Under the pieces are notes generated by a model, which saw nothing but the letters and a program-made list of their open reading frames with translations, had not been told where the DNA came from and did not search any database. A DNA stretch of 64,000 nucleotides, taken from contig OZ244960.1 in NCBI GenBank assembly GCA_965222605.1, positions 1,216,001 through 1,280,000 of the forward strand, written 5' to 3'. The stretch's first letter is position 1; each line of letters starts with the position of its first letter. The position numbers were made by a program, and so were the translations under genes. The stretch comes from Candidatus Latescibacterota bacterium. GTDB taxonomy: Bacteria > Latescibacterota > UBA2968. Shown in pieces: positions 3,265 through 62,958 of this stretch.

Positions 3265-3289
3265 CACAATCACATATCAGGAGAATACA

Positions 3290-4612: not shown

Positions 4613-4629
4613 AACTGTCAGCCAAACCA

Positions 4630-5203: not shown

Positions 5204-5232
5204 AACCACAAAATTTTGGAGGAAACACAAAC

Positions 5233-36919: not shown

Positions 36920-39900
36920 CTACCTGGTCCACCACCACACCCTCACGGGAATGGTCTGCGTAGCCGTTGTGCCATCCGTAGAGGTCGCTGTCACTATGAT
37001 CTGGCACTCCTTTATAAAAGGTTGTATCACCAGATCAGGGGGAACCTCGCTCGTCGCCTGGATTGTCACGTTTGAACCGCGCACTCTCACCGTGGCAACG
37101 TCTTCATCGGATGACGTTGCGCTGTAGGCGTCTATACGCTTGTTATACTTCACTTCGAAGTAGTCCGACATGTCCACAGTTGCCTCACTACTGAACCCTG
37201 GAAATGGCGATCTCACATGTAGGAGCACCCTATCAATGCTGTTCTTAGACAAAACAGTTGGCACTGAAAGCAACCACGTACCTTTAAGTGTTTGCCACTC
37301 TGATTTAAGATTATCAAGCCAAGCCGGAACGTTACCAAGACGCAATTCGAGTTGTGCTTCAAAAAGCGATTCGGGTTTAACCGCGCTGCCGTTGGATTCG
37401 AGAACTTCGAGGGTGCTTTCTCTAAAACTGGCTGAATCGCCGTGAAAACCAACAATAATAGGTTTCACATAATAACCATAACTTCCAGAACTCGGCCAAA
37501 AATTATAATATTTTTCACTACTGACATCATGCGTGAAATTCCAGATCACCAGATGCCTGTAGTGGTTTGGCATATCCTTTTCAGCACCACCACTTCCGTC
37601 CAGTTTGCCGCGATTAATGCGATCATACAGATTGGCATAGGGTCGGGAAGCATGGCAATCAATTGGCTGATCTCTACTCTGATCAGCACGCCAATAAACA
37701 TCACCAGTCGTGGAAGACATCACATTTATGCCATGGATGTGATCTGCGAGGTCTTCTACAAGCCCAAACCATATACCGTAATTACCCACAGACCTCATAG
37801 AATAATGGGCATCATTGCCTGCTGTCGTGACCTGATAAACGGAGATGGCTGCACTATCCTTAACTTGAAGAGCGCGATTGACGTTGACAAAGGAGAGACG
37901 CCGCGCCCAAGAATTGACGCATCCGCGAAACAAGACCAAACTCCAGCCACTATTATGCCTGTCATTTTTGTGATGTTCAAAATCCTCCAACCACGAACCG
38001 TGAAAACTGATGTCTTCAACCCCAACTTCCTCGAGAAGAGGCGAATAGTCCCGCACCGTCCAACCATGATCTGCTTCGATCCGAAGGGTATGTATAGGTT
38101 CATTCAGGCGCACCCGATTGTCCCGAATTTCGGCAATGCTGTGCTTTTCAGTCACAGCAACGTCACCCCATGAGTCGCGTTTCGAATATGGGGCAAAAAA
38201 CTCATTAGTGACTGTGTTACTTCTCATACTCAGCACAATCCACTGATCCACCCTGAGTTGGGACGTGTTCGCCACTGTGATCCAGAAGGTTTCTCGAGCA
38301 GCATCTTCTGTAATCCTGGCTAACTCGGTGCTCGTCTCGTTCCATTTTACCCAGTAACTGTGCGGCCAATTAGAGGGCTTAAAAGTGAACATATAGGGAT
38401 TTGTGTAAAGTGTACCGGGAATGGATGGGGGCAGGTGGTTTACCTGTCGTATGACCGTGCCTCCACTTTCACGGCCGCTTCCCCTCAGAACGATATTACT
38501 CTTGCCAATGTAGATGGGTTTGTTGATCATATTGCCTTCGCCATCATCTTCTTTATCAGTATTGGTACTGACCAAAAATTCACCGGGTGGAAAAAAGATA
38601 ATACCACTGCCGTTGGCCTCTGCCGCATCAATGGCAGCCTGAATAGCACTCTGGTCAGACATATTATCATTGGGTACAGCACCATAATCTGTGACGGCGA
38701 ACTGTTGATGCGTGACATTGGGAACAGGTCTTTCAAAATAGTGATATCCCGAGTAGGAAAAATCGGGTAAAATGGGTTGTCTCTTATTCTTTTTGGCCTC
38801 CATAAAATCTGCCCAGGTGAACGATATATCATCTGCTGAAACCGAATGGTTTTGCGCCCATTCTCTGGCGAGTACCTCTTTTTCACGCTGATTGCCAAAT
38901 TCCTCCCAAGTAACACTTTCATCACCATTGAAGTCCGCTTTCAAGACGGGTAATTGGTCCGATGTCCCAAAGGTCCAGGGGGCGTCAGTGTTACCATCAT
39001 TATCTACATCTTCATCGTCCCAGGTCACGTAAATGGTCGGGTTCGCATCGGTCGGAGATCTCATCTCTGATAGCCACTTCCGCCATATTTCTATTGCTGT
39101 TCCATCACCAACGCCATCCGATCTGTAGCCATTTCTTTCCTGCCAGTAGTTGTCGCTAAAAGTTGTTCCTGAACGGGGATCACTCGCCCCGCCGAAAAAT
39201 CCACCAACACGACCACTCCTATTATCCCACACCCTACAAGTCGTGTAGCATATTCTGACGGTGCCAGTATCATTGTTCCACCCAACTAAACCACCAGCGT
39301 TCCTTGAGGTATTCACTATCCCCGTTGAATAGCATGCCATCAAAGTACCGTCATTCTGCCCAACCAGCCCACCTCCGTTCTCGGCATTGTCCACACTCAC
39401 ATTTGCATAGCTCGTGTAAATTCTGCCTTCGTTAAACCCTACCAGACCACCAACCACCCCACCACCCCCCACTTGTCCCGTCACATAACACACAAAAACC
39501 TTACCAGTCATATGACCGACCAAGCCACCAACCCATTGGCGGCCCGTCACATTGACCCCGACGAGTCCCACGTTTTTGATCTCGCCTGACGACTTGCCAA
39601 ACAAACCTGCTTCGTAGCTGTCTCGTTGAATGAACAGATGGGAAATGGTATGACCATTCCCGTGAAACGTAGTCGTGAATAAGTCTGAAGCGGTCCCTAT
39701 TGGCTCCCATCCATCACTTGATTTTATGGTCCAATCTGTGTTCACACTCCCTGAAGCATAGCTATCTGAGTCATTGAAATCCAAATCCTTCGTTAGTTCG
39801 TAGCCCGTGCAGATAGACGGACAGCCCATCCCAGAAGGCGCAAGGGGAAATGCCAAATCATAACTATTCGCATTGTTCGCATCGTCAACTGCGCCGTTAC

Positions 39901-42900
39901 CATCCAGGTCATAGCGGATGGCGTTTAGCTGCTCCAGGTTGGATACCTCAATGAGGCCATCATCGTCATCGTCGTAGTCGTCAAATAACGTCGCTCCTTC
40001 CAGTTCAGACCATTCTCCCTGCCCTTCTCCATTCGTTGCCCGCACCTGAACATCATATTCCGTAGCTGCATCCAAATCAATGAGTGTCAAGTACGCAGCC
40101 TTACCTGTATAATTCCCATTAGAAAACACACCCAATCTACGGAATCTATATTGCACTTCGTAATCGGCAATATCAGCCCAATGAATTGTATTTGTAACAT
40201 CGTCCGTCCAATATATCCTATACCTTCCGCCATCGAGAACAATATCCTGCGAAGATAAAAGTTCTGAGGTAATAAAATCTTCAACATTGCTTCCGTCAAG
40301 ATCAGCACGCCGAATTACATTTCTATTGCTACGGTCCGTCCAATACACCTTATCCCCGAACAAGTCCAATGCAATTTTATCTGCATTTATTCTACCTGAT
40401 CCGCCCGCATCGTTGCTCATAACAATATCTTCGATATTACTCCCATCAAGGTCAGCACGTCGAACTTTCCGATCAATATGATTATTCGTCCAGTAAATCT
40501 TGCCCCCTGAAACATCCAACGCAATATCCCGTGGAAAACCAACATCAAGGATAATTTCACTATTACTCCCATCAAGGTCGGCACGTCGAACACCATTCAC
40601 GATGTTCAAACCCTCGCTATGTGTCCAATAAATCTTGCCCCCTATAATATCCAATGCGATGTTCGCCACAACAGTTGGCCACCCTGTAGGCACAATATCT
40701 TCGATATCGCTTCCGTCAAGGTCAGCACGTCGAACTTTACCCGCTTCTGTCCAGTAAATCTGGCCCCTTACAAAATCCACCGCAATGTCTCCAGGACTAT
40801 TCAACCCCGTAGTAATAATGTTTTCAATATTGCTTCCGTCAAGATCAGCGCGTTGTATTCTGCTTCCGCCACTATCTATCCAATATATTTTATTTTTCAA
40901 CAAATCCAACGCAAGATCACGCGGCTCAGCCAGCGGAGTAGATAACTCATACGCCATAGCCATCATCAAGCTATTCCAAGTTGACCCCGTTACCTTCAGT
41001 TCACTAAGCGCAGGTGCCGTCACATCCGAAACAGTAACGGTAATCGCCTGTTCTGTCGTCAATGATTGATCCCCTAAATTATTTGTCGCCGTGACCTCAA
41101 CGATATATGAGTTATCCATATTATCATCCGACGCCATTTCATAGTCCGGTGCAGTCTTGAAGGTCAACAAATCTATATCTGAAAAAAATGAAAACTTATC
41201 CGCATCAACTCCACCCGTAATGGCGTAACTACTCGCATTACTCGCGGATACTATACCCACAAAAGGATTGTTTTCACCTACATCAAAACTCGTAACATTG
41301 AAAGACGGCGAAACCCTTTCTCTCGTCATACCTTCACCCGATTGAGACCATCCACCCTCCGCTTCCGAACTCACTACACGCACCTGTATATCATACTCAG
41401 TATTGCCATCCAAACCTACAATCGTCATAGTGTTATCCGTACCCATATAATCCGCATCGGCAAATGTATTCGCCCCACTAATGCTATATTGCACATCATA
41501 GTCAATATCAAGATCAGCACGTCCAATCTTACGCGTCCCACCATCCGACCAGTATATCTTGTTCCCCGCAACATCCAACGCGATACCCCGTGGATTATCC
41601 AACCCCATAGTGATAACATCTTCAACATTGCTCCCGTCAAGATCAGCACGTCCAATCTTACGCGTCCCACCATTCGACCAGTATATCTTGTTCCCCGCAA
41701 CATCCAACGCGATACCCCATGGATTATCCAACCCCATAGTGATAACATCTTCAACATTGCTCCCGTCAAGATCAACTTTCCGTATCTTATCTGTCCCAAC
41801 ATCCAACCAGTATATCTCACCATGCAATATATCCAACGCGATACCCCGTGGATTATCCAACCCCATAGTGATAACATCTTCAACATTGCTCCCGTCAAGA
41901 TCAGCATACCGAATCTTATTTGCATTACTATCCGTCCAATATATTTTTCCCCCTGCAATATCCAATGCAATACCCTTCATAGAACCCGACGTAACAATAG
42001 TTTCCACATTACTCCCATCAAAATCGGCTCTCTGTATTCTATTCGGACTGGTCTCCGCCCAGTATATCTTCTCCTCAGAAGTATCCAACGCAATATCCAG
42101 TAGATATCTATCACCGATAACCTCTTCAACATTACTCCCATCAAAATCAGCTCTCCATATTCCCGATAATCCGTCCGCCCAGTATATCTTCTCCTCAGAA
42201 GTATCCAACGCAACCGCAAGCAACCCCTGAGCCTGAGAATCAAATTCAAATTTTGCGGTCTCCCATGTTACCGTCACACTGCTTGGCGTTGTCTCCGTAA
42301 CTATTGGGGCATTCGGTATCTCCGGCACATGGCGCACATCCACAACGACAACTTCAATCGTATCCGTCGCGGTCAGTGTCCGAACACCCGCACCACTTGT
42401 CGCCATAACCACCACTATATATTCATTGTCTTCTACACCACTAACAGGCATAATGCTTTCAACATCTGTGGGTAACTCATAATTTGGAGCAACTTTAAAT
42501 CGTAATGCACCTGTACCTGAAACAATTGAGAAATGGTCTTGATCAGCACCGCCAACAATCGCATAACCTGTAACGCTATCCTCACTATCAGCATCATCAG
42601 CGACGACTACACCCACATTTATCTTATTTTCCAGTATGTCGAACCTCGCGATACTGGTGAAAGACGGTGCGCTGTTCTGCGTTGTTATCCCTTCAACTGT
42701 ATCTGACCACGCACCTGTACCTTCATCATTCTCTGCGCGCACCTGTATATCATAGCCCTTGTTCTGCGCCAAGCTACTAATCGTGTATTCAAGACTGCCA
42801 CTTGTCCAGGCATCTGTAACCACTGTCCACCTGGTATCATCTGCTTTATCTGTTGCACTTGCATTACTGGGAATATGGCGCACATCATAGGCACTGATCG

Positions 42901-45900
42901 CTGGCCCTGTATTATCAGGTACTGTCCAACTCACCTTCAGACTGTTAAGCGTCACTGCTGCTATCGTCGGAACAGATGGCTTACCTGGTGCTTCGTTCAC
43001 ATCACTCACTGTCACAGTAAGCGTCTGTGTCGTTGTCAGAACACGATCACCTGCCCCACCCGTCGCTGTAACGATCACGATGTATTCATTGTTATTGGCT
43101 GCATTGGCTGGGTCTGCGCTGACAACATCCTCTGGACGTTCATAATCCAGCGCAGTCTTGAAGCTCAACACGCCCGTATTTGAAACAATCTCGAACTGAT
43201 CCTTATCTACACCACCTGTGATAGCATAGCCTGTGATAGTGTCATCACTATCGGCATCTGTCGCTGTCACTGTCACAACCGATGTGCTGTTCTCATTCAC
43301 GGAGATCGCTGATACGCTTGTGAACACGGGTGCTACATCGGCCTTTGTCGTCCCTGCAACGGAGGTTGACCATCCACTCGTCCCTTCATCATTACTCGCA
43401 CGCACTTGAATATCATAACCTGTGTTCTGACTTAGGCTGCCAATCGTGTATGCAAGATTACCTCCATTATTACTCGTCCACGCATCCGCAACCTCTGTCC
43501 ACTTCGTATCATCTGCCTTATCAGAGGTACTGGCACTACTGAGGATGTAGCGCATGTCATAACTACTAATATCAGGACCTGTGTTCGTCGGCGCGCTCCA
43601 CTGCACCTTCAGGCTATTCAATGTTACTTCTGCCACTGTCGGGGTATCAGGCACACCGGGTGCTTCGTTCACATCACTCACTGTCACCGTAAGCGTCTGT
43701 GTAGCGGTCAACGCACGATCACCTGTACCACTCGTCGCTTCTACCACCACAATGTACTTATTATTCTTCTCAGCATTGGCTGGGTCTGTGCTGACAACAT
43801 CCTCTGGACGCTCATAGTCCAGCGCAGTCTCGAAGCTCAACACGCCGGTCTGGTCATCAATCTCAAACTGGTCCTTATCTACACCCCCCGTAATCGCATA
43901 GCCCTTGATGCTATCATCGTTATCAACATCTGTCGCTGTCACTGTCACAATAGCACCTGTGCTGTTCTCATTCACGGAGATCGCTGATACGCTTGTGAAC
44001 ACGGGCACTACATTGGCCTTTGTCGTCTCTGCAACCGACGACGACCAACTACTCGTCCCTTCATCGTTCTTTGCACGCACTTGAATATCATAGCTTGTAT
44101 TCTGACTCAGACTACCAATCGTGTATGCAAGATTACCTCCATTATTACCCGTCCACGCATCCGCATCCACCGTCCACTTGGCGTCATCTGCCTTATCTGT
44201 CTCACTGGCACTGCTGAGGATATAACGCACATCATAAGCACTGATCGCAGGTCCCGTGTTCGTCGGGGCTGTCCAACTGATCTTTAAACTATTAAATGTC
44301 GCCTCTGCTACTGTCGGTGCTGAAGGCGTGCCAGGGACTTCTGTCTCATCTGTCACCGTCACGGTAAGCGTCTGCGTCGCTGTCAACGCACGATCACCCG
44401 CACCACTCGTCGCTTCTACAATCACGATGTATTCATTATTACCCGCTACATTGGCTGGGTCTGCAACCGCGACATCAGTGGGCGACTCATAGTTCGGGGC
44501 CACATTGAACGTCAGCACACCGGTTGCTTCCACAATAGAGAACGCTGACCCATCTGCGCCACCTGTAATCTCATACCCTGTGATCGTATCATCTGTATCT
44601 GCATCCGTCGCACTCACCGTGACAATAACCCCTGTGATGTTCTCACTGACTGACAGAGGCTGGACAACCACGAAGACTGGGGCCTGATTCTGCGTGGTCA
44701 TACCAGCCTTTGTAGCTGACCAATCACTGGTCCCCTCATCATTCTCTGCGCGAACCTGCACATCATAGCTTGTGTTCTGACTCAGACTACCAATCGTGTA
44801 TTCCAAAGAACCACTCGTCCACGCATCTGTCACCTCTGTCCAATTGCTATCATCTGTTTTATCTGTGTCACTCGCACTGGTCAAGATATAACGCACATCG
44901 TAGGCACTAATATCAGGACCCGTGTTCGTCGGCGCACTCCAACTGATCTTCAAGCTGTTAAACGTCGCTTCTGCTATCGTCGGTGCAGCAGGCGCAGCAG
45001 GCGGTTCAGTCACATCTGTCACTGTGATGGTAAGCGTCTGTGTTGCTGTCAGTTCCCGATCACCTTCACCACTCGTCGCTTCAACGAACACAATGTATTC
45101 ATTGTTGTCCGCATTATTCTCAGGATCAGTTACTGCTACATCCTTTGGATCCTCATAATTGGGCACTGCCTTGAACGTCAGCACACCGGTAGATGCTCCA
45201 ATAGAGAACTGCTCCCCATCCGCGCCAGTAGCAATCCCATAACTTTCTATATCATCACCCGTATCTGCATCACTCGCCGTCACCGTCACGATATCCGCCG
45301 TGCTGTTCTCACTCAGAGTGAACGATGATGCACTCGTGATAACTGGTGCGACATTGGCCTGTGTCATACCTGCAACAGTATCTGACCAACCACTGGTCCC
45401 TTCATCATTCTCTGCACGCACCTGCACATCGTAGCTTGTGTCCTGGTCCAGACTGCCAATCGTGTATTCGAGATTACCACCATTACCACTTGTCCACGCA
45501 TCCTCAACCTCTGTCCAGTTGGCATCTACATTCTCATCTGCACTGGTCGGAATGTAGCGTATATCATAACTACTGATCGCAGGTCCCGTGTTCGTCGGCG
45601 CACTCCAACTCACCTTCAGGCTATTAAATGTGGCTTGTGCTATCGTCGGGGCTGCGGGCTTACCGGGTGCCTCATTGTCCTGATCCGTCACGGTGATGGT
45701 AAGCGTATCTCTTGCCGTCAACGCTCGGGCATTCTCCCCACCTGTCGCTTCAACAATCACGATGTATTCATTATTATCCGCTGCATTGTCATTATCTGAA
45801 TTGTTCGCATCAGTAAAAGCCACATCCTCAGGATCCTCATAGTTTGGGGAGGACTTGAACGTCAATACACCGGTCGCTTCACCAAGAGAGAACTGTGACC

Positions 45901-54900: not shown

Positions 54901-57886
54901 TATCATCTGTCTTATCAGAGGCACTGGCACTGGTCAGAATGTAGCGTATATCATAGATAGAGATAGAGGGCCCTGTATTCGTCGGGGCTGTCCAACTCAC
55001 CTTCAGGCTGTTAAATGTGGCTTGTGCTATCGTCGGGGCTGCGGGCTTACCGGGTGCCTCATTGTCCTGATCCGTCACCGTGATCGTCAGCGTATCTCGC
55101 GCTGTCAACGCTCGACTATCCGCACCACCCGTTGCTTCAACGAACACAATGTATTCATTGTTGTCCCCATCATTAGCCGGGTCTGTAACCGCTACATCGG
55201 TAGGTGCTTCATAGTTGGGTGCTACCTTGAAAGTCAACACGCCCGTCGCTTCAACGATGGAGAACTGTGACCCATCTGCACCGGTAATGATCGCATACCC
55301 TGTGATGCCGTCATCCTCATCTGCATCTGTTGCTACTACTGTGCCAACTGTTGTGGCTGTCGTGATGTTCTCCGATACGGTGAACGATGAGACACTTGTA
55401 ATGACTGGCGCCTGGTTCTGTATCGTTGTCCCTGTCACCGATGAAGACCACGCGCTTGTCCCTTCATCACTCTCTGCGCGAACCTGCACATCGTAGCTCG
55501 TGTTCTGGTCCAGGCTACTAATCGTGTATTCGAGATTGCCACCATTACCACTTGTCCACGCATCCTCAACCTCTGTCCAGTTGGCATCTACATTCTCATC
55601 GGCACTGGTCAGGATATAACGCACATCATAACCACTAATATTTGGTCCCGTATTCGTCGGTGCTGTCCAGTCTATCTTCAAGCTGTTCACCGTTGCTTCT
55701 GCTACTGTCGGGGCAGCAGGCGTGCCAGGGACTTCTGTCACATCACTCACCGTCACTGTAAGCGTCTGCGTTGCCGTCAACGCACGATCACCCACACCAC
55801 TCGTCGCTTCTACAATCACGATGTATTCATTATTACCCGCTACATTGGCTGGGTCTGCAACCGCGACATCAGTGGGCGACTCATAGTTCGGGGCTACATT
55901 GAACGTCAGCACACCGGTTGCTTCCACAATAGAGAACGCTGACCCATCTGCAGCGTCAACTATCCCATACCCTGTGATGTCGTCCTCAGCATCATCGTCC
56001 GTCGCACTGACTGTCACAATGGCTGTGATGATGTTCTCACTCACGGTGATCGGCGCGACAGCAGCGAAGACCGGTCCCTGGTTTTCTACCGTCACCCCTG
56101 CAACAGTATCTGACCATGCACCCGTCCCTTCATCATTCTCTGCTCGCACTTGCACATCATAGCTTGTGTTCTGGTCCAGGCTGCCAATCGTGTATTCGAG
56201 ATTGCCACCATTACCACTCGTCCAGGCATCCGCATCCACCGTCCACTTGGCGTCATCTGTCGCATCTGCACTGGTCAGAATATAGCGCACATCATAGGCA
56301 CTAATATCAGGACCCGTGTTCGTCGGCGCACTCCATTCCACCTTCAGACTGTTAAATGTCGCCTCTGCTATCGTCGGTGTAGCTGGCACACCGGGTGCTT
56401 CGCCAGCCACATTACTCACTGTCACCGTAATCGTCTGCGTTGCTGTCAACGCACGATCACCCACACCACTCGTCGCTTCTACCACCACGATATACGCGTT
56501 ATCCGTATCACTATCCCCTGGACGCTCAAAGTCCGGCGCAGTCTTGAAAGTCAACACACCTGTACCTGACACAATCTCGAACTGTGACTCATCTGCGCCA
56601 CCTGTAATCTCATACCCTGTGATATTGTCGTCAGTATCACTGTCTGCTGCGGTCACTGTGACAACATCTGCTGTGCTGTTCTCACTGACTGAAATCGTTG
56701 ACGTACTCGAGATGACTGGTGCGACATTGGCCTGTGTCACACCTGCAACAGTATCTGACCAACCACTGGTCCCCTCATCATTCTCTGCGCGAACCTGCAC
56801 ATCGTAGCTTGTGTTCTGACTCAGGCTACCAATCGTGTATTCCAAAGAACCACTTGTCCACGCATCTTCAACCTCTGTCCAGTTGGCATCTACATTCTCA
56901 TCCGCACTGGTCAGGATATAACGCATATCATAACCACTAATATCTGGTCCCGTGTTCGTCGGGGCTGTCCAGTTCACCTTCAGGCTGTTCACCGTCGCCT
57001 CTGCTATCGTCGGGGCAGCAGGCGTGCCAGGGACTTCTGTCTCATCTGTCACTGTCACTGTAATCGTCTGCGTTGCCGTCAACTCACGTGTACCTGTTCC
57101 ACTCGTCGCCTCAACCACTACGATATACTCATTATTGCCCGATGCATTCACAGGATCTGCACTAACAACATCCCCTGGACGCTCAAAGTCCGGCGCAGTC
57201 TTGAAAGTCAACGCACCGGTCTGGTCATCAATCTCAAACTGAGACTCATCTGCGCCACCTGTAATCTCATACCCTGTGATATTGTCGTCAGTATCACTGT
57301 CTGCTGCTGTTACAGTGACAACATCTGCTGTGCTGTTCTCACTCACTGAAATCGTTGACGTACTCGAGATGACTGGTGCGACATTCGCACTCGTGGTACC
57401 ACTCACGGTATCTGACCAGTCACCCGTCCCTTCATCGCTCTCTGCTCGCACCTGTATATCATACCCTGTATCAGGCTCTAATGAACCAATCACATATTCA
57501 AGATTACCACCAGTACCACTCATCCAGGCATCTTCCACCTCTGTCCAGTTATTGTCATCTGCCTTATCTGTCTCACTGGCACTGCTGAGGATATAACGCA
57601 CATCATAAGCACTGATCGCAGGTCCCGTGTTCGTCGAGGCTGTCCAACTGATCTTTAAACTATTAAATGTCGCCTCTGCTACTGTCGGTGCTGAAGGCGT
57701 GCCAGGGACTTCTGTCTCATCTGTTACTGTCACTGTAAGCGTCTGCGTTGCCGTCAACCCACGATCACCCGTGCCACTCGTCGCTTCTACAATCACGATG
57801 TATTCATTATCACCCGCTCCACTTGCAGGGGCTGTGCTAACAACATCAGTAGGTGCCTCATAGTTCGGGGCTACCTTGAAAGTCAA
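36920..57886 (-). CDS. Giant surface protein, C-terminal part: tandem FN3-cadherin units, two YWTD beta-propellers, GLUG-like region, DUF4955-like beta-helix, Ig-like domain
   Basis: Repeating SW.APTNTGP.I.AYDVRY...SYDVQVRAEN.EG..WS (FN3) and NxAP..SVSEN..ATDAD..LTFK.APNYE (cadherin); IYWxD blades; GGLVG repeats; ILPDFSYSGY, FPPGEF. Confidence 0.92.
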   Translation of the reverse strand: MTFKVAPNYEAPTDVVSTAPASGAGDNEYIVIVEATSGTGDRGLTATQTLTVTVTDETEVPGTPSAPTVAEATFNSLKISWTASTNTGPAISAYDVRYILSSASETDKADDNNWTEVEDAWMSGTGGNLEYVIGSLEPDTGYDIQVRAESDEGTGDWSDTVSGTTSANVAPVISSTSTISVSENSTADVVTVTAADSDTDDNITGYEITGGADESQFEIDDQTGALTFKTAPDFERPGDVVSADPVNASGNNEYIVVVEATSGTGTRELTATQTITVTVTDETEVPGTPAAPTIAEATVNSLKVNWTAPTNTGPDISGYDMRYILTSADENVDANWTEVEDAWTSGSLEYTIGSLSQNTSYDVQVRAENDEGTSGWSDTVAGVTQANVAPVISSTSTISVSENSTADVVTVTAADSDTDDNITGYEITGGADESQFEIVSGTGVLTFKTAPDFERPGDSDTDNAYIVVVEATSGVGDRALTATQTITVTVSNVAGEAPGVPATPTIAEATFNSLKVEWSAPTNTGPDISAYDVRYILTSADATDDAKWTVDADAWTSGNGGNLEYTIGSLDQNTSYDVQVRAENDEGTGAWSDTVAGVTVENQGPVFAAVAPITVSENIITAIVTVSATDDDAEDDITGYGIVDAADGSAFSIVEATGVLTFNVAPNYESPTDVAVADPANVAGNNEYIVIVEATSGVGDRALTATQTLTVTVSDVTEVPGTPAAPTVAEATVNSLKIDWTAPTNTGPNISGYDVRYILTSADENVDANWTEVEDAWTSGNGGNLEYTISSLDQNTSYDVQVRAESDEGTSAWSSSVTGTTIQNQAPVITSVSSFTVSENITTATTVGTVVATDADEDDGITGYAIITGADGSQFSIVEATGVLTFKVAPNYEAPTDVAVTDPANDGDNNEYIVFVEATGGADSRALTARDTLTITVTDQDNEAPGKPAAPTIAQATFNSLKVSWTAPTNTGPSISIYDIRYILTSASASDKTDDTKWTEVEDAWTSGNGGNLEYTIGSLDQNTSYDVQVRAESDEGTGAWSDTVAGVTVENQGPVFAAVAPITVSENIITAIVTVTATDADEDDNITGYAIVDDADGAQFSIGASTGVLTFKTAPNYEAPEDVQFTDSNNSANDNVAGNNEYIVIVSATGGAGARVLTAMDTIKVTVMDVDTEAPGTPDAPTITQATFNSLKVNWTAPTNTGPAISAYDVRYILTSADETDDANWTVITDAWTSGTGGALEYTISPLAQDTEYDVQILAESDEGTSDWSDTVKGMTSVNVAPVITSTSSFTVSENITTATTVGTVSATDADADDSITGYAIVTGADRSQFSLGEATGVLTFKSSPNYEDPEDVAFTDANNSDNDNAADNNEYIVIVEATGGENARVLTVRDTLTITVTDVTEPPAAPAVPTIAEATFNSLKVEWTAPTNTGPAISAYDIRYILTSADENVDANWTEVEEVWTSGNGGNLEYTISSLDQNTSYDVQVRAENDEGISDWSDTVAGVIQANVAPVISSASTFTVSENSTADVVTVTAADSDTDDNITGYEITGGADGSQFEIDDQTGALTFKTAPDFEHPGDVVSADPVNASGNNEYIVVVEATSGTGTRELTVTQTITVTVTDETEVPGTPSAPTIAEATFNSLTVSWTAPTNTGPEISAYDVRYILSSASETDKADDTKWTEVEDAWTSGTGGALEYTISPLAQNTEYDVQIFAESDEGTSGWSDSVEGMTTENVAPVITLIDAISVAENSTGDIVTISASDADTGDDIESYGIATGADGGQFSIGADSGVLTFSASPNYEAPTDVLVSDPASGAGDNEYIVYVEATGGEDARALTARDTLTVTVTDVTEPPAAPAAPTIAEATFNSLKVNWTAPTNTGPAISSYDIRYIPTSADENVDANWTEVEEVWTSGNGGNLEYTISSLDQNTSYDVQVRAENDEGISDWSDTVAGVIQANVAPVISSASTFTVSENSTADIVTVTASDADTGDDIESYGIATGADGEQFSIGASTGVLTFKAVPNYEDPKDVAVTDPENNADNNEYIVFVEATGGENARALTARDTLTITVTDQDDEVPGQPATPTIAEATFNSLKVEWSAPTNTGPDISAYDVRYIFSSASETDKADDSKWTVDADAWTSGNGGNLEYTIGSLDQNTSYDVQVRAENDEGTGAWSDTVAGVTVENQGPVFAAVAPITVSENIITAIVTVSATDDDAEDDITGYGIVDAADGSAFSIVEATGVLTFNVAPNYESPTDVAVADPANVAGNNEYIVIVEATSGVGDRALTATQTLTVTVSDVTEVPGTPAAPTIAEATVNSLKIEWTAPTNTGPDISGYDVRYILTSVDETDDANWTEVEDAWTSGNGGNLEYTISSLDQNTSYDVQVRAESDEGTSAWSSSVTGTTIQNQAPVITSVSSFTVSENITTATTVGTVVATDADEDDGITGYAIITGADGSQFSIVEATGVLTFKVAPNYEAPTDVVSTAPASGAGDNEYIVIVEATSGVGDRELTATQTLTVTVTDETEVPGTPSAPTIAEATFNSLKVVWNAPTNTGPTISAYDVRYILTSASETDDANWTEVEDAWTSGSLEYTIGSLDQNTSYDVQVRAKNDEGTSDWSATKAGMTTQNQAPVFVVVQPQSVNENSTGAIVTVTATDADEDDNITGYAIVDDADGAQFSIGASTGVLTFKTAPNYEAPEDVQFTDSNNSANDNVAGNNEYIVIVSATGGAGARALTAMDTIKVTVMDVDTEAPGTPDAPTIAEATFNSLKVEWSAPTNTGPDISAYDVRYILTSADETDDAKWTVDADAWTSGDGGTLEYTISSLSQNTSYDVQVRAENDEGISGWSDTVAGVTVENQGPVFAAVAPITVSENIITAIVTVSATDDDAEDDITGYGIVDAADGSAFSIMEATGVLTFNVAPNYESPTDVAVTDPANVAGNNEYIVVVSATGGASDRELTATQTLTVTVTDVTEVPGTPSAPTIAEATFNSLKVVWNAPTNTGPAISAYDVRYILTSADETDDANWTEVEDAWTSGSLEYTIGSLDQNTSYDVQVRAENDEGTGAWSDTVSGTTSANQAPVITSASSFTVSENSTADIVMVTASDADTDDDIESYGIATGADGSAFSIGASTGVLTFKVAPNYEDPKDVAVTDPENDADNNEYIVFVEATGGADSRALTARDTLTITVSDVTEAPGQPATPTIAEATFNSLKNSWTAPTNTGPAISAYDIRYILTSADETDDTKWTEVEDAWTSGSLEYTIGSLNQNTSYDVQVRAESDEGTSAWSSSVTGTTIQNQAPVITSVSSFTVSENITTATTVGTVVATDADEDDGITGYAIITGADGSQFSIVEATGVLTFKASPNYEDPKDVAVTDPENDADNNEYIVFVEATGGAGDRELTTTQIITVTVTDVNEAPDQPATPTIAEATFNSLKVEWSAPTNTGPDISAYDVRYILTNADETDDANWTVVEDAWTSGSLEYTIGSLDQNTSYDVQVRAENDEGISGWSDTVAGVTVENQGPVFAAVAPITVSENIITAIVTVSATDDDAEDDITGYGIVDAADGSAFSIVEATGVLTFNVAPNYESPTDVAVADPASGAGDNEYIVIVEAASGAGDRELTATQTLTVTVSDVETEAPGVPATPTIAEATFNSLKVEWTAPENTGPSITAYDVRYILSSASDVDKANDNNWTEVEDAWTSGNGGNLEYTISSLDQNTSYDVQVRAENDEGISGWSDTVAGVTQANVAPVISSTSTISVSENSTADVVTVTAADSDTDDNITGYEITGGADESQFEIDDQTGALTFKTAPDFERPGDSDTDNAYIVIVEATSGVGDRELTATQTITVTVSNVAGEAPGTPATPTIAEATFNSLKVQWSAPTNTGPSITAYDVRYILSSEDENVDANWTVEDDAWTSGDLTYTIENLSSNTSYDVQVRAENAEGTSNWSATKAGMTTQNQAPVFVVVQPQSVNENSTGAIVTVTATDADGDDNITGYAIVTGADGSQFSLGEATGVLTFKSSPNYEDPEDVAFTDANNSDNDNAADNNEYIVIVEATGGENARALTARDTLTITVTDQDNEAPGKPAAPTIAQATFNSLKVSWSAPTNTGPAISSYDIRYIPTSADENVDANWTEVEDAWTSGNGGNLEYTIGSLDQDTSYDVQVRAENDEGTSGWSDTVAGMTQANVAPVITSASSFTLSENSTADIVTVTASDADTGDDIESYGIATGADGEQFSIGASTGVLTFKAVPNYEDPKDVAVTDPENNADNNEYIVFVEATSGEGDRELTATQTLTITVTDVTEPPAAPAAPTIAEATFNSLKISWSAPTNTGPDISAYDVRYILTSASDTDKTDDSNWTEVTDAWTSGSLEYTIGSLSQNTSYDVQVRAENDEGTSDWSATKAGMTTQNQAPVFVVVQPLSVSENITGVIVTVSATDADTDDTITGYEITGGADGSAFSIVEATGVLTFNVAPNYESPTDVAVADPANVAGNNEYIVIVEATSGAGDRALTATQTLTVTVTDETEVPGTPSAPTVAEATFNSLKISWTAPTNTGPAISAYDVRYILSSASETDKADDAKWTVDADAWTGNNGGNLAYTIGSLSQNTSYDIQVRAKNDEGTSSWSSSVAETTKANVVPVFTSVSAISVNENSTGAIVTVTATDVDNDDSIKGYAITGGVDKDQFEIDDQTGVLSFETALDYERPEDVVSTDPANAEKNNKYIVVVEATSGTGDRALTATQTLTVTVSDVNEAPGVPDTPTVAEVTLNSLKVQWSAPTNTGPDISSYDMRYILSSASTSDKADDTKWTEVADAWTSNNGGNLAYTIGSLSQNTGYDIQVRASNDEGTSGWSTSVAGTTKADVAPVFTSVSAISVNENSTSVVTVTATDADSDDTITGYAITGGVDKDQFEIVSNTGVLSFKTALDYERPEDVVSADPANAANNNEYIVIVTATGGAGDRVLTTTQTLTVTVSDVNEAPGKPSVPTIAAVTLNSLKVSWTVPDNTGPAISAYDVRHIPSNASATDKADDTRWTVVTDAWTSGSLEYTISSLAQNKGYDIQVRAENDEGTGAWSDTVEGITTQNSAPSFTSIARFDILENKINVGVVVADDADSEDSVTGYAIVGGADQDHFSIVSGTGALRFKVAPNYELPTDVESIMPVSGVEDNEYIVVVMATSGAGVRTLTATDTIEVVVVDVRHVPEIPNAPIVTETTPSSVTVTWETAKFEFDSQAQGLLAVALDTSEEKIYWADGLSGIWRADFDGSNVEEVIGDRYLLDIALDTSEEKIYWAETSPNRIQRADFDGSNVETIVTSGSMKGIALDIAGGKIYWTDSNANKIRYADLDGSNVEDVITMGLDNPRGIALDILHGEIYWLDVGTDKIRKVDLDGSNVEDVITMGLDNPWGIALDVAGNKIYWSNGGTRKIGRADLDGSNVEDVITMGLDNPRGIALDVAGNKIYWSDGGTRKIGRADLDIDYDVQYSISGANTFADADYMGTDNTMTIVGLDGNTEYDIQVRVVSSEAEGGWSQSGEGMTRERVSPSFNVTSFDVGENNPFVGIVSASNASSYAITGGVDADKFSFFSDIDLLTFKTAPDYEMASDDNMDNSYIVEVTATNNLGDQSLTTEQAITVTVSDVTAPALSELKVTGSTWNSLMMAMAYELSTPLAEPRDLALDLLKNKIYWIDSGGSRIQRADLDGSNIENIITTGLNSPGDIAVDFVRGQIYWTEAGKVRRADLDGSDIEDIVPTGWPTVVANIALDIIGGKIYWTHSEGLNIVNGVRRADLDGSNSEIILDVGFPRDIALDVSGGKIYWTNNHIDRKVRRADLDGSNIEDIVMSNDAGGSGRINADKIALDLFGDKVYWTDRSNRNVIRRADLDGSNVEDFITSELLSSQDIVLDGGRYRIYWTDDVTNTIHWADIADYEVQYRFRRLGVFSNGNYTGKAAYLTLIDLDAATEYDVQVRATNGEGQGEWSELEGATLFDDYDDDDDGLIEVSNLEQLNAIRYDLDGNGAVDDANNANSYDLAFPLAPSGMGCPSICTGYELTKDLDFNDSDSYASGSVNTDWTIKSSDGWEPIGTASDLFTTTFHGNGHTISHLFIQRDSYEAGLFGKSSGEIKNVGLVGVNVTGRQWVGGLVGHMTGKVFVCYVTGQVGGGGVVGGLVGFNEGRIYTSYANVSVDNAENGGGLVGQNDGTLMACYSTGIVNTSRNAGGLVGWNNDTGTVRICYTTCRVWDNRSGRVGGFFGGASDPRSGTTFSDNYWQERNGYRSDGVGDGTAIEIWRKWLSEMRSPTDANPTIYVTWDDEDVDNDGNTDAPWTFGTSDQLPVLKADFNGDESVTWEEFGNQREKEVLAREWAQNHSVSADDISFTWADFMEAKKNKRQPILPDFSYSGYHYFERPVPNVTHQQFAVTDYGAVPNDNMSDQSAIQAAIDAAEANGSGIIFFPPGEFLVSTNTDKEDDGEGNMINKPIYIGKSNIVLRGSGRESGGTVIRQVNHLPPSIPGTLYTNPYMFTFKPSNWPHSYWVKWNETSTELARITEDAARETFWITVANTSQLRVDQWIVLSMRSNTVTNEFFAPYSKRDSWGDVAVTEKHSIAEIRDNRVRLNEPIHTLRIEADHGWTVRDYSPLLEEVGVEDISFHGSWLEDFEHHKNDRHNSGWSLVLFRGCVNSWARRLSFVNVNRALQVKDSAAISVYQVTTAGNDAHYSMRSVGNYGIWFGLVEDLADHIHGINVMSSTTGDVYWRADQSRDQPIDCHASRPYANLYDRINRGKLDGSGGAEKDMPNHYRHLVIWNFTHDVSSEKYYNFWPSSGSYGYYVKPIIVGFHGDSASFRESTLEVLESNGSAVKPESLFEAQLELRLGNVPAWLDNLKSEWQTLKGTWLLSVPTVLSKNSIDRVLLHVRSPFPGFSSEATVDMSDYFEVKYNKRIDAYSATSSDEDVATVRVRGSNVTIQATSEVPPDLVIQPFIKECQIIVTATSTDGTTATQTIPVRVWWWTR

Positions 57887-58990
57887 CGCACCGGTCTGGT
57901 CTCAAACTGAGACTCATCTGCGCCACCTGTAATCTCATACCCTGTGATATTGTCGTCAGTATCACTGTCTGCTGCTGTTACAGTGACAACATCTGCTGTG
58001 CTGTTCTCACTCACTGAAATCGTTGACGTACTCGAGATGACTGGTGCGACATTGGCCTGTGTCACACCTACAACAGTATCTGACCATCCACTGGTCCCCT
58101 CATCATTCTCTGCGCGAACCTGCACATCGTAGCTTGTGTTCTGACTCAGGCTACCAATCGTGTATTCCAAAGAACCACTTGTCCACGCATCTTCAACCTC
58201 TGTCCAGTTGGCATCTACATTCTCATCCGCACTGGTCAGGATATAACGCACATCATAAGCACTAATATTTGGTCCTGTGTTTGTCGGTGCTGTCCAGTCT
58301 ATCTTCAAGCTGTTCACCGTTGCTTCTGCTATCGTCGGTGTAGCAGGCGTGCCAGGGACTTCTGTCTCATCTGTCACTGTCACTGTAAGCGTCTGCGTTG
58401 CCGTCAACTCACGATCACCCACACCACTCGTCGCTTCTACCACCACGATGTATTCATTGTTATTGGCTGCATTGGCAGGGTCTGTAACCTCAACATCTGC
58501 AGGTGCCTCATAGTTGGGTGCCACCTTGAAAGTCAACACACCCGTTTGATCACCAATCTCGAACTGTGACCCATCTGCATCATTAACAATGCCATAACCC
58601 TCTATGCTGTCATCACTATCACCGTCTGTCGCTGTGACTGTACCAATGTCCCCTGTGCTGTTCTCACTGACTGAGATCGCCGATACATTCGTGAACACAG
58701 GTGCCTGATTCTGCTGCGTCGTCCCCATAACCGATGAAGACCACACACCTGTCCCCTCGTCATTCTTCGCTCGCACCTGTATCTCATAACCCGTGTTCTG
58801 CTCCAGGCCCGTGATCGTGGCACTCAAACCCGTGCCATCGTGAGGCCAAGAAGTGAAGTCACCACTGTTGCCGACCCGATACTGCACATCGTAAGCTGTG
58901 ATCGCAGGTCCCGTATTCGTCGGCGCTGTCCAACTTATGGTCAAGCTATTTAGCGTTGAGGCTGATACTGTCGGTACTGCTGGCTGACCC
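42340..58990 (-). repeat. Array of ~25 coding tandem repeats of ~640-690 bp (FN3 + cadherin)
   Basis: The TNTGP-type FN3 motif recurs about every 667 bp from ~58910 to ~42905; several long blocks are near-identical at DNA level. Confidence 0.92.
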
Positions 58991-61704
58991 GGCACCTCGG
59001 TCACATCGGTCAAGGTGATCGTCACATCTATGCTTGCACGCCCACCTTGACCATCCGCCACACGCACCACCACTGAATAGCTATCTTTCACCTCATAGTT
59101 ATACGTCACACCGTCCGTCGTCTGAAGCTGCCCACTCGTTGAAACAATGGCAAAACTCGCTGCATCAGCCCCTTCCAGGCTATAGGTCAATGTCCCACCG
59201 TCACTGTCTGTCGCAACTACCGCGTCCCCTATATTCTCCCCCGCCACCGTGTTCTCAGCAAAACTGCGCGCTAGATCGACCTCGCTGAATATCGGAACCT
59301 GATTGGCCGATTTCACCTCTATGGAGAATATGAGTTCGGCACTGTTCCCGGCGCCATCCCTCGCTTGCCATTTATATTCCCTTGCCTCTGTTGCAACCCT
59401 CGGCGTGCCGCTAATCGTACGGGTTCCTACATCTATGATCAGACCATCAGGCAATGCCGGCGTGAGGGTATAGCCAATCGCAACATAGCCACCCGTCGCT
59501 TCGGGCAGTTGGAGATCGGTAATCTGTGTCCCTACTGTGTAAGTCTGATCCGGTAATGTCGCACCATCAAAACTCAGTTTCACATCCGCCTTGTTCACCG
59601 TCACTGCAATAGTCTGCTCGGCAGTCTGATTCGAGCCTGCTACATCTCGCGCAATCACTGTAATCGTCGCCGTGCCCTCAGCCACAGGTGTGATCGTCAC
59701 TACAGAACCCGACACATCCACCTTTGCAATGGCGTCATCACTCGACGCTGCCACGTATGTCAAATCATCGCCATCAGGATCAGAAAACCTGGCCGATACA
59801 TCTATTTTCAAGGCTTCGTCACCCATCTTCAGCGTCTGTGCCGCAAACCTTCCCACCGCCACAGGTGCGCGGTTGACACGCACGCCGCCAACCCCAAAGA
59901 GAGAGAACATATCGGTATAACCGCAGACCTCATCACCAGCCACACGCTGCCGCTCAAGCATTTCCCAGGCACTCTCGTAATGGACAATGACAGGATCAGA
60001 AATATTCTCAGGCACAGTCAGACAAATCTCCACAGATGCTTGCAACGCATCGCCGATATCAACATCCTGGTTATCGACCTGAGCCTTCAGGTCTATATCA
60101 AAAAGGGATGAACTGGCAGGAATGGCAAAACCCGCCTGAGCAGATACATCCGGGGCATCGGAAACCGCTATCTTGCCGACTTCTGCGAAGACGCCCTCGA
60201 TCTCCTCATGCGGGATACTAACAGGAAGAGCGGCGCGAGTGACAATGATTCTGCCCCCTTCACCTGTAAAAGGAGACAGGTCAATAACCGCATATGCTCT
60301 ATCGCCCTCACCCTGAAATTGTGCAAGCTTCGGTTCCTCTTTAGGTGGCTCATAGACCGGCGTACCCGAAACAGGCTCAGACCAATCGCTTGCGCCATCA
60401 CTGTTCCATGTGCGAACACGAACCTGATACAATTGACCATTGATCAAGTAGGGATCGTGATAACGAGGAACTTTTAACTCATGATAATAAACAGAGGTAT
60501 TGGTACGACCATAGATAGTCTTTCGATCCCCCCAGATGCCGTCTTCACCCTTGCGAATCTCGGCATGATACCCCCTTACTGGCGGTCTCCCACGCTCATC
60601 AGGCACCGTAGCGTAGTGGACGGTGAGGGACTCGTTGGCCGGAATAACCAGAAAATTCGACGGCGGTGAAGAGGGCGGTTCTTTCAAATCGTTAATTTTG
60701 ATGATCACCAAAAGGCGCGCTGTCCCCCCCTGACCATCGCTCACCTCAACAATCACGGAGTAGGTCGTCCGATATTCATAGTCATACGTGATGTCTTCCC
60801 GCGTCTGAAGCTGACCCGTGCGTGTGTCAATGGCAAAAAGATCGACATCCGTACCGCTGAGGTGGTAGGTCACAATATCGCCGTCAGCATCGGTCGCAGA
60901 GATAGGACTACCTATCAGTTCACTCCCCGGCGTGTTCTCATCTATAAAGTGTGTCACATAAGTCTCTGACGTGAAGACCGGTGCGTGATTTATCCATTTG
61001 CCATAGCTCTTGATAAAAATCAAGAAATCGTCTAACCCAATCTCACCATTCCCATTCAGGTCGTATTTTGCCTCATACTGCTCTTGACCTTCTTGATAGC
61101 CATACAACCCGATCAACAAAGAAAAGTCTTGAAAATCCACAAACCCACTCCCATCAAAATCCGGGGAAGGTGCTACAGCGACCTGTAGCACGACACGTAT
61201 GTTCAACATCACACTTTCAACTTGCCCACTGCGGCTAAGTTCGGCACGCACCAATAGAATCTCGGTCTGTGAAAAGGCATCTGTCGTGCGAAAGCGAATC
61301 GTGCCAACAAGACCGCTGTTGACCGTTGCAGACCCACTCAAAGAAGCTATGTTGATCTGCACAGAGCTTGGATTTGTACCCTCTGATACCCTCATATCAG
61401 GATTGGGCAATACATCACCTGCATCAAAATCCGTGTAAACAACCTGAGTGACATCGTATTCAAAACGTGCGGAAAGACCGCTCGCATTTTGAATATCTGT
61501 GCCAAAAATCTGAATGGAAACATCTTGATTGGGGGATACATCGAGAGAGTGGATACCCTGATCACCTTCAGAACCATCCAAACTTAGAGAAAGGGAAAAA
61601 CTGCTCGTCTGTGTGGATACAGACCACGGAGACATCAAGAGCATATAGCCCAGTAGGCTGGTAATACCAAGCGCGAAAGAGAGCGATTTAACCTGGAGTG
61701 TCAT
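57883..61704 (-). CDS. Giant surface protein, N-terminal part: signal peptide, cohesin-like, dockerin/EF-hand-like, cadherin, FN3 and Ig-like domains; frameshifted at 57900/57901
   Basis: Hydrophobic leader; PDFDGSGFVDFQDF..YDLNGNGEIGLDDF; ends mid-cadherin where 7 bp present in sister repeats are missing. Confidence 0.88.
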   Translation of the reverse strand: MTLQVKSLSFALGITSLLGYMLLMSPWSVSTQTSSFSLSLSLDGSEGDQGIHSLDVSPNQDVSIQIFGTDIQNASGLSARFEYDVTQVVYTDFDAGDVLPNPDMRVSEGTNPSSVQINIASLSGSATVNSGLVGTIRFRTTDAFSQTEILLVRAELSRSGQVESVMLNIRVVLQVAVAPSPDFDGSGFVDFQDFSLLIGLYGYQEGQEQYEAKYDLNGNGEIGLDDFLIFIKSYGKWINHAPVFTSETYVTHFIDENTPGSELIGSPISATDADGDIVTYHLSGTDVDLFAIDTRTGQLQTREDITYDYEYRTTYSVIVEVSDGQGGTARLLVIIKINDLKEPPSSPPSNFLVIPANESLTVHYATVPDERGRPPVRGYHAEIRKGEDGIWGDRKTIYGRTNTSVYYHELKVPRYHDPYLINGQLYQVRVRTWNSDGASDWSEPVSGTPVYEPPKEEPKLAQFQGEGDRAYAVIDLSPFTGEGGRIIVTRAALPVSIPHEEIEGVFAEVGKIAVSDAPDVSAQAGFAIPASSSLFDIDLKAQVDNQDVDIGDALQASVEICLTVPENISDPVIVHYESAWEMLERQRVAGDEVCGYTDMFSLFGVGGVRVNRAPVAVGRFAAQTLKMGDEALKIDVSARFSDPDGDDLTYVAASSDDAIAKVDVSGSVVTITPVAEGTATITVIARDVAGSNQTAEQTIAVTVNKADVKLSFDGATLPDQTYTVGTQITDLQLPEATGGYVAIGYTLTPALPDGLIIDVGTRTISGTPRVATEAREYKWQARDGAGNSAELIFSIEVKSANQVPIFSEVDLARSFAENTVAGENIGDAVVATDSDGGTLTYSLEGADAASFAIVSTSGQLQTTDGVTYNYEVKDSYSVVVRVADGQGGRASIDVTITLTDVTEVPGQPAVPTVSASTLNSLTISWTAPTNTGPAITAYDVQYRVGNSGDFTSWPHDGTGLSATITGLEQNTGYEIQVRAKNDEGTGVWSSSVMGTTQQNQAPVFTNVSAISVSENSTGDIGTVTATDGDSDDSIEGYGIVNDADGSQFEIGDQTGVLTFKVAPNYEAPADVEVTDPANAANNNEYIVVVEATSGVGDRELTATQTLTVTVTDETEVPGTPATPTIAEATVNSLKIDWTAPTNTGPNISAYDVRYILTSADENVDANWTEVEDAWTSGSLEYTIGSLSQNTSYDVQVRAENDEGTSGWSDTVVGVTQANVAPVISSTSTISVSENSTADVVTVTAADSDTDDNITGYEITGGADESQFETRPVR

Positions 61705-62271: not shown

Positions 62272-62958
62272 TTATACCTGAGCACTGACCTCACACACCT
62301 TCAAATTCGCATATTCGCCAATCAAAGGTGCCATCTGTCGAAAACCAATCTTGCCACCGCCCAGCAAAGGTCCATACGTCTGACCATCATCAACCCAGTG
62401 GAAAATCTTCAAATCGCGAATATAAAAAACAACCTCTGATCCGCATTTGATCAGCGTAATCGGGTATGGCGGTCTGGCATCGTCAACTGAAGGTAGAGGA
62501 TCGGCACCTTGACAGACCATGTGAAAACCATAACTCTTGCGCAAATTGCAAACCTGAAAAGCGCGTTCCTTGAGAGCCTTTCGCCGAAAATAAGACACGT
62601 GCAACGCATTGATATCGCTGCTGTGATACTGCTTGTATTCGCCAGCCCGCGGCGCCAATGACGAATCAAACACATCTTCACCCCCTCGCCCCAAAGCAGA
62701 AAAAAACAAAATGCACAACCCCGGCTCGCGCACCGGCCAAAAATCCCACGTCACGGCAATATCCGCTGGAAAATCTTCAGGACACCAGAAAACAAAATTT
62801 GCCGCCTGCCCTTCCCCGGGATCGCGGCGGTTCTCCATTCGCATGCGACCATTTGGAAAAGTGATTGCAGCATCTCCCTCCATCCGAAACCCTTCAATAT
62901 CTGACGCTGAAGACAGGGGATTGTCGTAAAGCAATTCGCCAAATTCAAAATTATCCAT
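62272..62958 (-). CDS. DUF1961 / YesU-like protein (frame open to 63123 with a Tat-like leader)
   Basis: LYDNPL...FRMEG, NFVFWCPEDFP, ALHVSYFRR, CNLRKSYGF, GGKIGFRQMAP. ATG 62958 after AGGAG. Confidence 0.8.
   Translation of the reverse strand: MDNFEFGELLYDNPLSSASDIEGFRMEGDAAITFPNGRMRMENRRDPGEGQAANFVFWCPEDFPADIAVTWDFWPVREPGLCILFFSALGRGGEDVFDSSLAPRAGEYKQYHSSDINALHVSYFRRKALKERAFQVCNLRKSYGFHMVCQGADPLPSVDDARPPYPITLIKCGSEVVFYIRDLKIFHWVDDGQTYGPLLGGGKIGFRQMAPLIGEYANLKVCEVSAQV

Follow-up and report, generated by a model that had tools for sequence, protein, structure and literature searches.

How does a bacterium of the Candidatus Latescibacterota use a gene for more than 8,000 residues, and is it in fact a single gene? 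The question is posed by a 64,000-nucleotide stretch of one genome (GenBank assembly GCA_965222605.1, contig OZ244960.1, positions 1,216,001 to 1,280,000 of the forward strand), referred to below as the window. Its minus strand carries the giant gene at 36920-61704, with an ATG at 61704 and the stop codon at 36920-36922, limits that had been placed correctly in a first-pass annotation of the letters alone. On balance, the evidence favors a single gene for a secreted, modular protein with a tip on a stalk, a cohesin-dockerin head at its N-terminus and a tip of the PL29 polysaccharide lyase family; included in the same reading is its status as the longest member of a Latescibacterota protein family built in this manner. 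Absent from the first-pass annotation were the frame break, the sharing of the head within a paralog family, a named enzyme family for the tip, and the T9SS-anchored cohesins that could accept the head's dockerin. The general ingredients have already been published, whereas neither the architecture nor the head family was found described in the literature searched.

As given, the window holds two open reading frames (ORFs) in different frames, at 57883-61704 (ORF A, 1273 aa, protein P0001, with its stop at 57883-57885) and at 36920-57886 (ORF B, 6988 aa, read from a TTG at 57886). The frame of ORF B, one base off that of ORF A, is open from 57901 and extends over 6993 codons from stop to stop. 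Reading through the frame break yields 8263 residues (~874 kDa), so the protein of about 8,260 aa proposed in the first-pass annotation stands for the read-through product, whereas the window itself presents it as two ORFs. The product is by far the longest of its genome, a single 6.34-Mb contig estimated as 98.7% complete in which the runner-up reaches 3644 aa. It is strongly acidic, as had been claimed (isoelectric point, pI, 4.05-4.10; net charge about -900), and contains 11 cysteines in total. From the N-terminus, the order of modules is a Sec-type leader, the cohesin-dockerin head, ~26 pairs of cadherin-like and FN3 domains, propellers nested in FN3 domains, a GLUG region, a PL29-family beta-helix and an Ig-like domain. 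Each module named in the first-pass annotation (a signal peptide, a cohesin-like and dockerin-like head, ~25 acidic FN3-cadherin pairs, two YWTD propellers, a GLUG-like region and a ~530-aa DUF4955-like beta-helix near the C-terminus) was recovered by Pfam scans, motif counts, fold models or, for the signal peptide, inspection by eye. The features are located as follows (AF2, AlphaFold2 models).

61609-61704, minus strand: signal-peptide-like segment, ORF A residues 1-32 (a hydrophobic core, then a conserved S-x-Q, aligned in 15 paralogs, by eye)
61180-61608, minus strand: cohesin-like domain, residues ~33-175 (Pfam Cohesin, AF2, Foldseek)
60970-61173, minus strand: dockerin-like domain, residues ~178-245, with two calcium-loop/helix segments (Pfam Dockerin_1 and EF-hand matches)
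58708-60957, minus strand: irregular proximal stalk of cadherin, FN3, a 155-aa unassigned stretch, Big_9, He_PIG, cadherin and FN3 (Pfam, P0001)
57899-57901, minus strand: frame break, 7 bases fewer than in sister repeats, between the stop of ORF A and the opening of ORF B
42302-58707, minus strand: regular array built from about 24-25 units of 211-231 aa, each a cadherin-like plus an FN3 domain (motif counts and Pfam)
41267-42301, minus strand: FN3 domain interrupted behind its first strands by YWTD beta-propeller 1, six blades at 41477-42259 (Ldl_recept_b, YW motifs at ORF B 5240-5450)
40982-41266, minus strand: divergent cadherin-like domain between the propellers (Pfam Cadherin stretches, sequence reading)
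39932-40981, minus strand: FN3 domain with inserted YWTD beta-propeller 2 at 40127-40954 (Pfam, YW motifs, sequence reading)
38912-39931, minus strand: GLUG-motif region of ~340 aa (Pfam Glug, two stretches)
37322-38911, minus strand: PL29-like parallel beta-helix with a Pect-lyase_RHGA_epim N-terminus and a DUF4955 C-terminus (NCBIfam, Pfam, AF2, Foldseek)
36923-37321, minus strand: C-terminal Ig-like module, the last 133 residues; internal in relatives and without a tail match, it is not a secretion tail

The ORF is split into two frames because of a 7-base deletion at about 57899-57901. The break sits within a cadherin-like repeat whose copy is otherwise identical to its sisters over ~60 bases upstream and 27 bases downstream, and the extra 7 bases are present in three sister copies of the same gene. 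Contigs of four public runs were aligned to 57300-58500; the results rest on the contigs listed, and rare variants are lost in contigs. No RNA run was among the 10 runs listed as containing the sequence. One contig from run X4 (189 nt, depth 73), which stems from another study than the best-holding runs X1 and X2, spans 57794-57975 including the unique flank of this copy, and has the 7 extra bases behind 57899. X1 and X2 represent one sample, possibly the one that was assembled, and contain a fraction of 0.88 of the sampled words; in them, positions 57836-57901 are covered by a 69-nt unitig whose last 3 letters do not align. Simulation of k=31 unitigs on the window gave a 94-nt unitig (57836-57929) for the deleted form and a 69-nt unitig from 57836 for the intact form, the latter extending 5 letters past 57899, two of which match the reference by chance; the observed unitigs are an exact match to the intact-form prediction (69) and not to that for the deleted form (94). 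Given the X4 contig and the unitig lengths, the gene is most likely a single ORF of 8263 aa. It is quite probable that the population carries the intact gene, and the 7-base break most likely reflects an error of the consensus or a minor allele rather than the population state. A programmed frameshift was also considered and is unlikely, as the 16-base overlap, read by eye, contains no slippery heptamer and the reads show an indel difference.

Two observations weigh against an intact gene, namely that none of the X1/X2 contigs listed bridges the break site and that the deposited single-contig assembly itself carries the break. The latter also speaks for the view that the deletion is real and the gene a pseudogene in this strain, in which only a 1273-residue secreted fragment comprising the head and the first stalk domains would be made, while the 6988-residue remainder, devoid of a signal peptide, would not be exported. 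The presence of a transposase gene 375 bases downstream of the giant's stop and the ease with which large repeat genes decay point in the same direction. However, the 20,967 bases downstream of the break are still fully open, the X4 contig is intact, and the X1/X2 unitigs fit the intact form only. With the downstream frame preserved and the read data as they are, the deletion, if real, would have to be very recent, and decay of the gene is considered unlikely.

The identity of the tip rests on family membership. The tip matches the NCBIfam model NF058554 (“BT3328 family hyaluronic acid endo-lyase”) at 317 bits (E-value 2.5e-94; profile positions 305-840 of 840), and the Pfam families PF12708 (37.9 bits) and PF16315 (DUF4955, 144.1 bits). 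Its AF2 model, based on 49 sequences, is a parallel beta-helix with a mean predicted local distance difference test (pLDDT) of 80.1 and a predicted template modelling score of 0.80, residues 30-565 being confident. Foldseek neighbors include phage tailspike depolymerases, a capsule lyase, AlgE epimerases, GH110 and GH28, at low TM-scores of 0.2-0.5, and the pneumococcal adhesin PfbA is also among the fold matches. A PDB sequence search with the tip reached no further than the initial beta-helix turns of AlgE epimerases and similar proteins, the PDB copy used containing no PL29 structure. Of 149 columns conserved to 90% or more among 48 relatives, the tip retains 138, and it has all 12 invariant charged or histidine residues (D, E, H, R) of the 49 aligned homologs, among them R223, E272, E316, D317, H330, R354, R355, H386 and H410 in the numbering of the 680-aa query. 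BT3328 of Bacteroides thetaiotaomicron is the founding enzyme of PL29. The portions of PMC6994673 and PMC9067506 concerned with it describe an endo-lyase of the cell surface with chondroitin sulfate and hyaluronan as substrates, and those of PMC6994673 also mention an N-terminal non-catalytic spacer of ~300 aa; the literature search found no paper on DUF4955. Sequence comparison supports, at the family level, assignment of the tip to the BT3328/PL29 glycosaminoglycan lyases. The glycan-cleaving “enzyme on a stalk” of the first-pass annotation is borne out to the same extent, through the PL29 match and the conserved residues kept, cleavage of a glycan itself being predicted only.

The PL29-like tip is not an isolated occurrence in this organism, whose genome has six PL29-like domains. 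Relatives of the tip are frequently dockerin-tip-YWTD proteins of 1000-1170 aa, some stand behind FN3/cadherin stalks of 2000-3000 aa, and some are fused to chondroitinase-B domains. Two further genes lie just upstream of the giant.

63127 onward, past the window edge, minus strand: free-standing PL29-like paralog of 563 aa (NF058554 363 bits; 56% identical to the tip)
62272-63123, minus strand: DUF1961 gene between this paralog and the giant (Pfam 329 bits; no NCBIfam name)

The genome also contains 154 sulfatase matches (E up to 1e-10), which speak for the tip assignment; that no GH88 or GH105 over cut-off accompanies them is odd for a bacterium with six domains of the PL29 type.

At the opposite end of the protein, the head can be assigned as cohesin plus dockerin by its modeled fold. 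Its AF2 model (pLDDT 80.8) places two helices, H163-171 and H196-205, in the dockerin part, and all of the top Foldseek matches are cohesins (TMt 0.6-0.78; 5nrk 0.73, 2vo8 0.78), among them 3kcp and 4fl4, which are cohesin-X-dockerin chains. Two D-x-D/N-G-x-G loops of the dockerin are conserved among 15 paralogs. The profile scores are borderline. Cohesin (PF00963), with a cut-off of 24.1 bits, reaches 22.7-23.8 bits, or 24.1 with in-frame neighbors included, and Dockerin_1 (PF00404), with a cut-off of 22.9 bits, reaches 19.7-23.6.

The head recurs throughout the genome. Its residues 1-250 share 52-62% identity with 14 other ORFs of 527-3090 aa, and a hidden Markov model of the cohesin part finds in this genome only these 15 ORFs together with two fragments or weak matches, always at residues ~33-180. 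In the paralogs, cadherin/FN3 stalks follow the head, and the distal modules include leucine-rich repeat (LRR) arrays, a leishmanolysin-like M8 peptidase, a GSDH propeller, CARDB and GLUG; one paralog of 2904 aa combines YWTD repeats with a PL29-like tip, and most family members have LRR tips rather than enzyme tips. The head is thus a module shared by a 15-member paralog family with differing tips, and would serve as its common anchor. Beyond this genome, public assemblies yielded 363 head-bearing proteins of 700-2228 aa, and a pattern scan of GTDB found 79 head loci, nearly all titled Latescibacterota, with one from Gemmatimonadota and one from Poribacteria. A counterpart that also speaks for a single gene is found in a congener, G014, where an uninterrupted ORF of 6392 aa has an N-terminus 75% identical to that of the giant and ends in the same Glug, Pect-lyase and DUF4955 tip; G014 has a second uninterrupted ORF of 5845 aa with an LRR tip, and another congener, G001, has one of 6525 aa. 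A head-like match also occurs in an open frame of 8739 aa in G014 (G014:C1 around 6318163), the end of which, unlike that of the giant, carries subtilase and ABC-transporter domains.

The genome provides candidate partners for the dockerin of the head. It contains 80 Dockerin_1 matches, 61 of them over cut-off, and few cohesins. Five proteins (1560, 1329, 280, 268 and 268 aa) combine a cohesin with a type A sorting domain of the type IX secretion system (T9SS) at the extreme C-terminus, which in the 1560-aa protein scores 44.3 bits against TIGR04183. The three copies of 268-280 aa (G000:C1 2787078-2787884, 6190360-6191166 and 85724-86566) are 92-95% identical to one another. Two of the small proteins adjoin head- or dockerin-bearing genes, and the small proteins as a group are candidate minimal anchoring scaffoldins. 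In the simplest model, the T9SS-anchored cohesins are predicted to be the sockets for the dockerins of the genome, including that of the giant's head. A complex prediction for the head dockerin with the cohesin of the 1560-aa T9SS-tailed protein gave a score of 0.02 and a mark of 0.32, values that weigh neither for nor against binding. Parts of a T9SS are encoded as well, with an SprA-like translocon at 101.7 bits and a PorU-like protein at 237 bits, the latter under the equivalog cut-off.

Several results stand against the tip-on-a-stalk reading as a whole. The 317 bits of the tip are far under the equivalog cut-off of 1100 bits for NF058554, in part because the tip lacks the 300-residue N-terminal domain of BT3328; with such a score, the family membership is supported but the same specificity is not, and the substrate of BT3328 is not transferable to the tip. 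No GH88 or GH105 exceeds its cut-off in the genome, the best match reaching 21.5 bits, and the step that usually follows a glycosaminoglycan lyase, processing of unsaturated products, is therefore missing. The cohesin and dockerin Pfam scores lie at or under their cut-offs. No C-terminal domain is shared among the 16 giants tested, and no T9SS sorting domain (TIGR04183, PF18962 or type B) was found in the last 150-800 residues of the giant at E-values up to 1, all six PF18962 matches of the genome lying elsewhere. Nor was any other recognizable outer-membrane export signal found on the giant. Across the genome, no secretin was matched, the best TpsB/ShlB match (20.7 bits) is under cut-off, and GldM gave no match, a weak absence given that the control genomes for the T9SS families include no organism with a T9SS motor. 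Families of repeats-in-toxin (RTX) regions or autotransporter barrels did not appear in general Pfam scans of all pieces of the giant, in agreement with the first-pass annotation, which had seen neither a type I secretion RTX motif nor such a barrel and had left the export route unexplained, an assessment that still stands. In view of the missing export tail, secretin, TpsB and GldM, surface exposure is assumed, and the crossing of the outer membrane by a tail-less protein of ~874 kDa is the weakest step of the explanation.

The same body of evidence can be read as that of a pure adhesin or matrix scaffold, in which the beta-helix binds a glycan without cutting it and the heads cross-link fibers and dockerin proteins into an extracellular mesh instead of anchoring them to the cell. 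Beta-helix adhesins do exist, PfbA being one of them, and the lack of GH88/GH105 over cut-off fits this view, as does the prevalence of LRR binding tips without an enzyme among the family members; moreover, each head has both a socket and a plug, which would permit chains. Nevertheless, the tip has kept all invariant charged and histidine residues in a family that contains a proven lyase, other members of the head family have clear enzymes such as the M8 peptidase, and dedicated receptors that combine a cohesin with a sorting domain exist. A non-catalytic scaffold accordingly seems improbable compared with a lyase-tipped protein held at the cell, without being far-fetched.

The stalk between head and tip is highly repetitive. 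Summed over four pieces, Pfam matched 26 Cadherin and 26 fn3 stretches, and the signature motifs number 25 for each domain. The array has a pI of 4.05 and lacks cysteine over 5200 aa. DNA identity among 23 units averages 73% (minimum 64%, maximum 95%), an average low enough to argue that the array is no trivial collapse artifact. Tandem Repeats Finder detected only the 129-base YWTD blades, because its longest period was 500 bases and the stalk units measure ~670 bases. An array length falsified by collapsed, expanded or mis-joined units is very improbable: ~25 related units with identity stretches of up to 95% and a consensus error already present within the array would invite it, but a mean DNA identity of 73% is easily resolved by long reads, the frame is open over thousands of codons, the genome was assembled as a single contig, and other genomes of the genus hold the uninterrupted 5845-, 6392- and 6525-aa ORFs and the 8739-aa open frame. 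As the cadherin-like domains alternate with FN3 domains, the classical calcium sites between cadherins are not guaranteed, and the Ca2+-stiffened rod of the first-pass annotation would be putative. Closer to the head, the stretch between the first FN3 domain and Big_9 (ORF A residues 451-605; 59890-60354, minus strand; 155 residues) matches no Pfam family.

Between the array and the tip lie two modules of other types. Ldl_recept_b (YWTD) scores 183 bits, with YW motifs in two blocks of 6 and 5. Both propellers are six-bladed, each is nested in an FN3 domain after its first strands, and the second is 48% identical to the first; inserted in this manner, they would project sideways from the stalk. 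The GLUG region (24.6 bits against a cut-off of 20.5) contains 6 of the 11 cysteines of the protein and is 38% identical to a Glug-bearing paralog, L018. The C-terminal Ig-like module gave a poor AF2 model (pLDDT <50).

A mechanism may be proposed on this basis. Following Sec export, the giant would reach the cell surface by a further route, and its head dockerin would dock onto cohesin proteins anchored to the outer membrane by the T9SS, holding the N-terminus at the cell; the head's own cohesin could accept further dockerin proteins. The stalk, ~200 nm in length by our own estimate if each beta-sandwich domain contributes ~4 nm, would keep the propellers and the lyase off the cell, and the tip would cleave an acidic, probably sulfated, uronic-acid polysaccharide by beta-elimination. 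The host matrix into which the first-pass annotation had the tip project may be that of a sponge, a putative habitat suggested by the phyla of the relatives.

Each part of this scheme has precedents, from which the giant departs in specific ways. With BT3328 it shares the catalytic-domain family, the DUF4955 C-terminus and the principle of an N-terminal non-catalytic spacer that distances the enzyme from the cell. However, BT3328 has ~840 aa, a ~300-aa spacer and a SusC/SusD locus, whereas the giant has a spacer of ~7,600 aa, no SusC/D and, as its N-terminus, a cohesin-dockerin head without a lipobox cysteine. Cellulosome scaffoldins (C. thermocellum CipA, 3kcp and 4fl4; OlpA/OlpC, 3ul4 and 4dh2) likewise unite cohesin and dockerin folds on one chain, and cellulosome systems also pair many dockerin proteins with few cohesins, some of them on cell-anchored proteins. 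In contrast to cellulosomes, the host here is diderm, the cohesin-dockerin pair stands at the N-terminus immediately after the signal peptide, a T9SS sorting domain takes the place of SLH domains or sortase in the candidate anchors, and the cargo consists of giant fibers with lyase, protease or LRR tips and not of cellulases, the pairing in the present case being a prediction. The giant Gram-negative adhesins LapA, MpIBP and SiiE, built of calcium-binding repeats, are exported by type I secretion and have an RTX region and signal at the C-terminus and a retention module at the N-terminus. The protein studied here resembles them in its very long acidic rod of Ig-like repeats with ligand-binding modules distal to the cell, and differs in its Sec-type N-terminus and in the lack of any RTX family in the Pfam scans. 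SprB is a giant T9SS adhesin of Bacteroidota with a C-terminal T9SS sorting domain. In common with it are a diderm host of the Fibrobacterota-Chlorobiota-Bacteroidota (FCB) group, a Sec signal, a repetitive surface protein of several thousand residues and T9SS parts in the genome, but no T9SS sorting domain was found on the giant.

In the literature on related organisms, the relevant part of PMC8163846 describes how, in the dominant lineages of sponge microbiomes, cadherin, FN3 and further animal-like domains abound, as do genes for glycosaminoglycan degradation, and PMC7081726 mentions “cellulosome-affiliated enzymes” of Latescibacteria with reference to Farag 2017. Within the literature searched, no paper was found that connects cohesin and dockerin to Latescibacteria, Poribacteria or symbionts of sponges.

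Some other genes of the window deserve mention. The transposase gene downstream of the giant (35430-36545, plus strand) is of the DDE type (DDE_5, DDE_Tnp_1); it does not seem to have cut the giant short, since the ortholog in G014 has the same modules at its end. At 7904-11937 on the plus strand, a complete restriction-modification enzyme of the MmeI type, in which the five MmeI Pfam domains are all present, precedes a GmrSD-like endonuclease; together with an AAA_15/AbiEii-like ATPase (13916-15271), they resemble a small defense island. Two tandem ammonium transporter genes (394 and 397 bits) lie at 3188-6555 on the plus strand.

It is tempting to speculate, tentatively and as a less probable extension of the above, that the head represents a surface-display system of diderm bacteria, namely Latescibacterota with relatives in Poribacteria and Gemmatimonadota. 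T9SS-anchored single-cohesin proteins would serve as sockets on the outer membrane for dozens of dockerin plugs, among them fibers whose length ranges from 600 to over 8,000 residues. It may then be the head itself that acts as the signal by which tail-less giants cross the outer membrane, for instance by riding on a cohesin that carries a sorting domain, and the whole would amount to a cellulosome-like scheme turned to reaching and digesting animal matrix glycans. The locus in any case offers a testable architecture, with a common plug-and-socket head, a stalk of adjustable length, exchangeable tips (lyase, protease or LRR) and candidate receptors. It bears on what the “orphan” dockerins of Gram-negative bacteria bind, on how proteins of such size exit a diderm cell without a known signal, and on how a cell can act on a polymer ~0.2 micrometre away.

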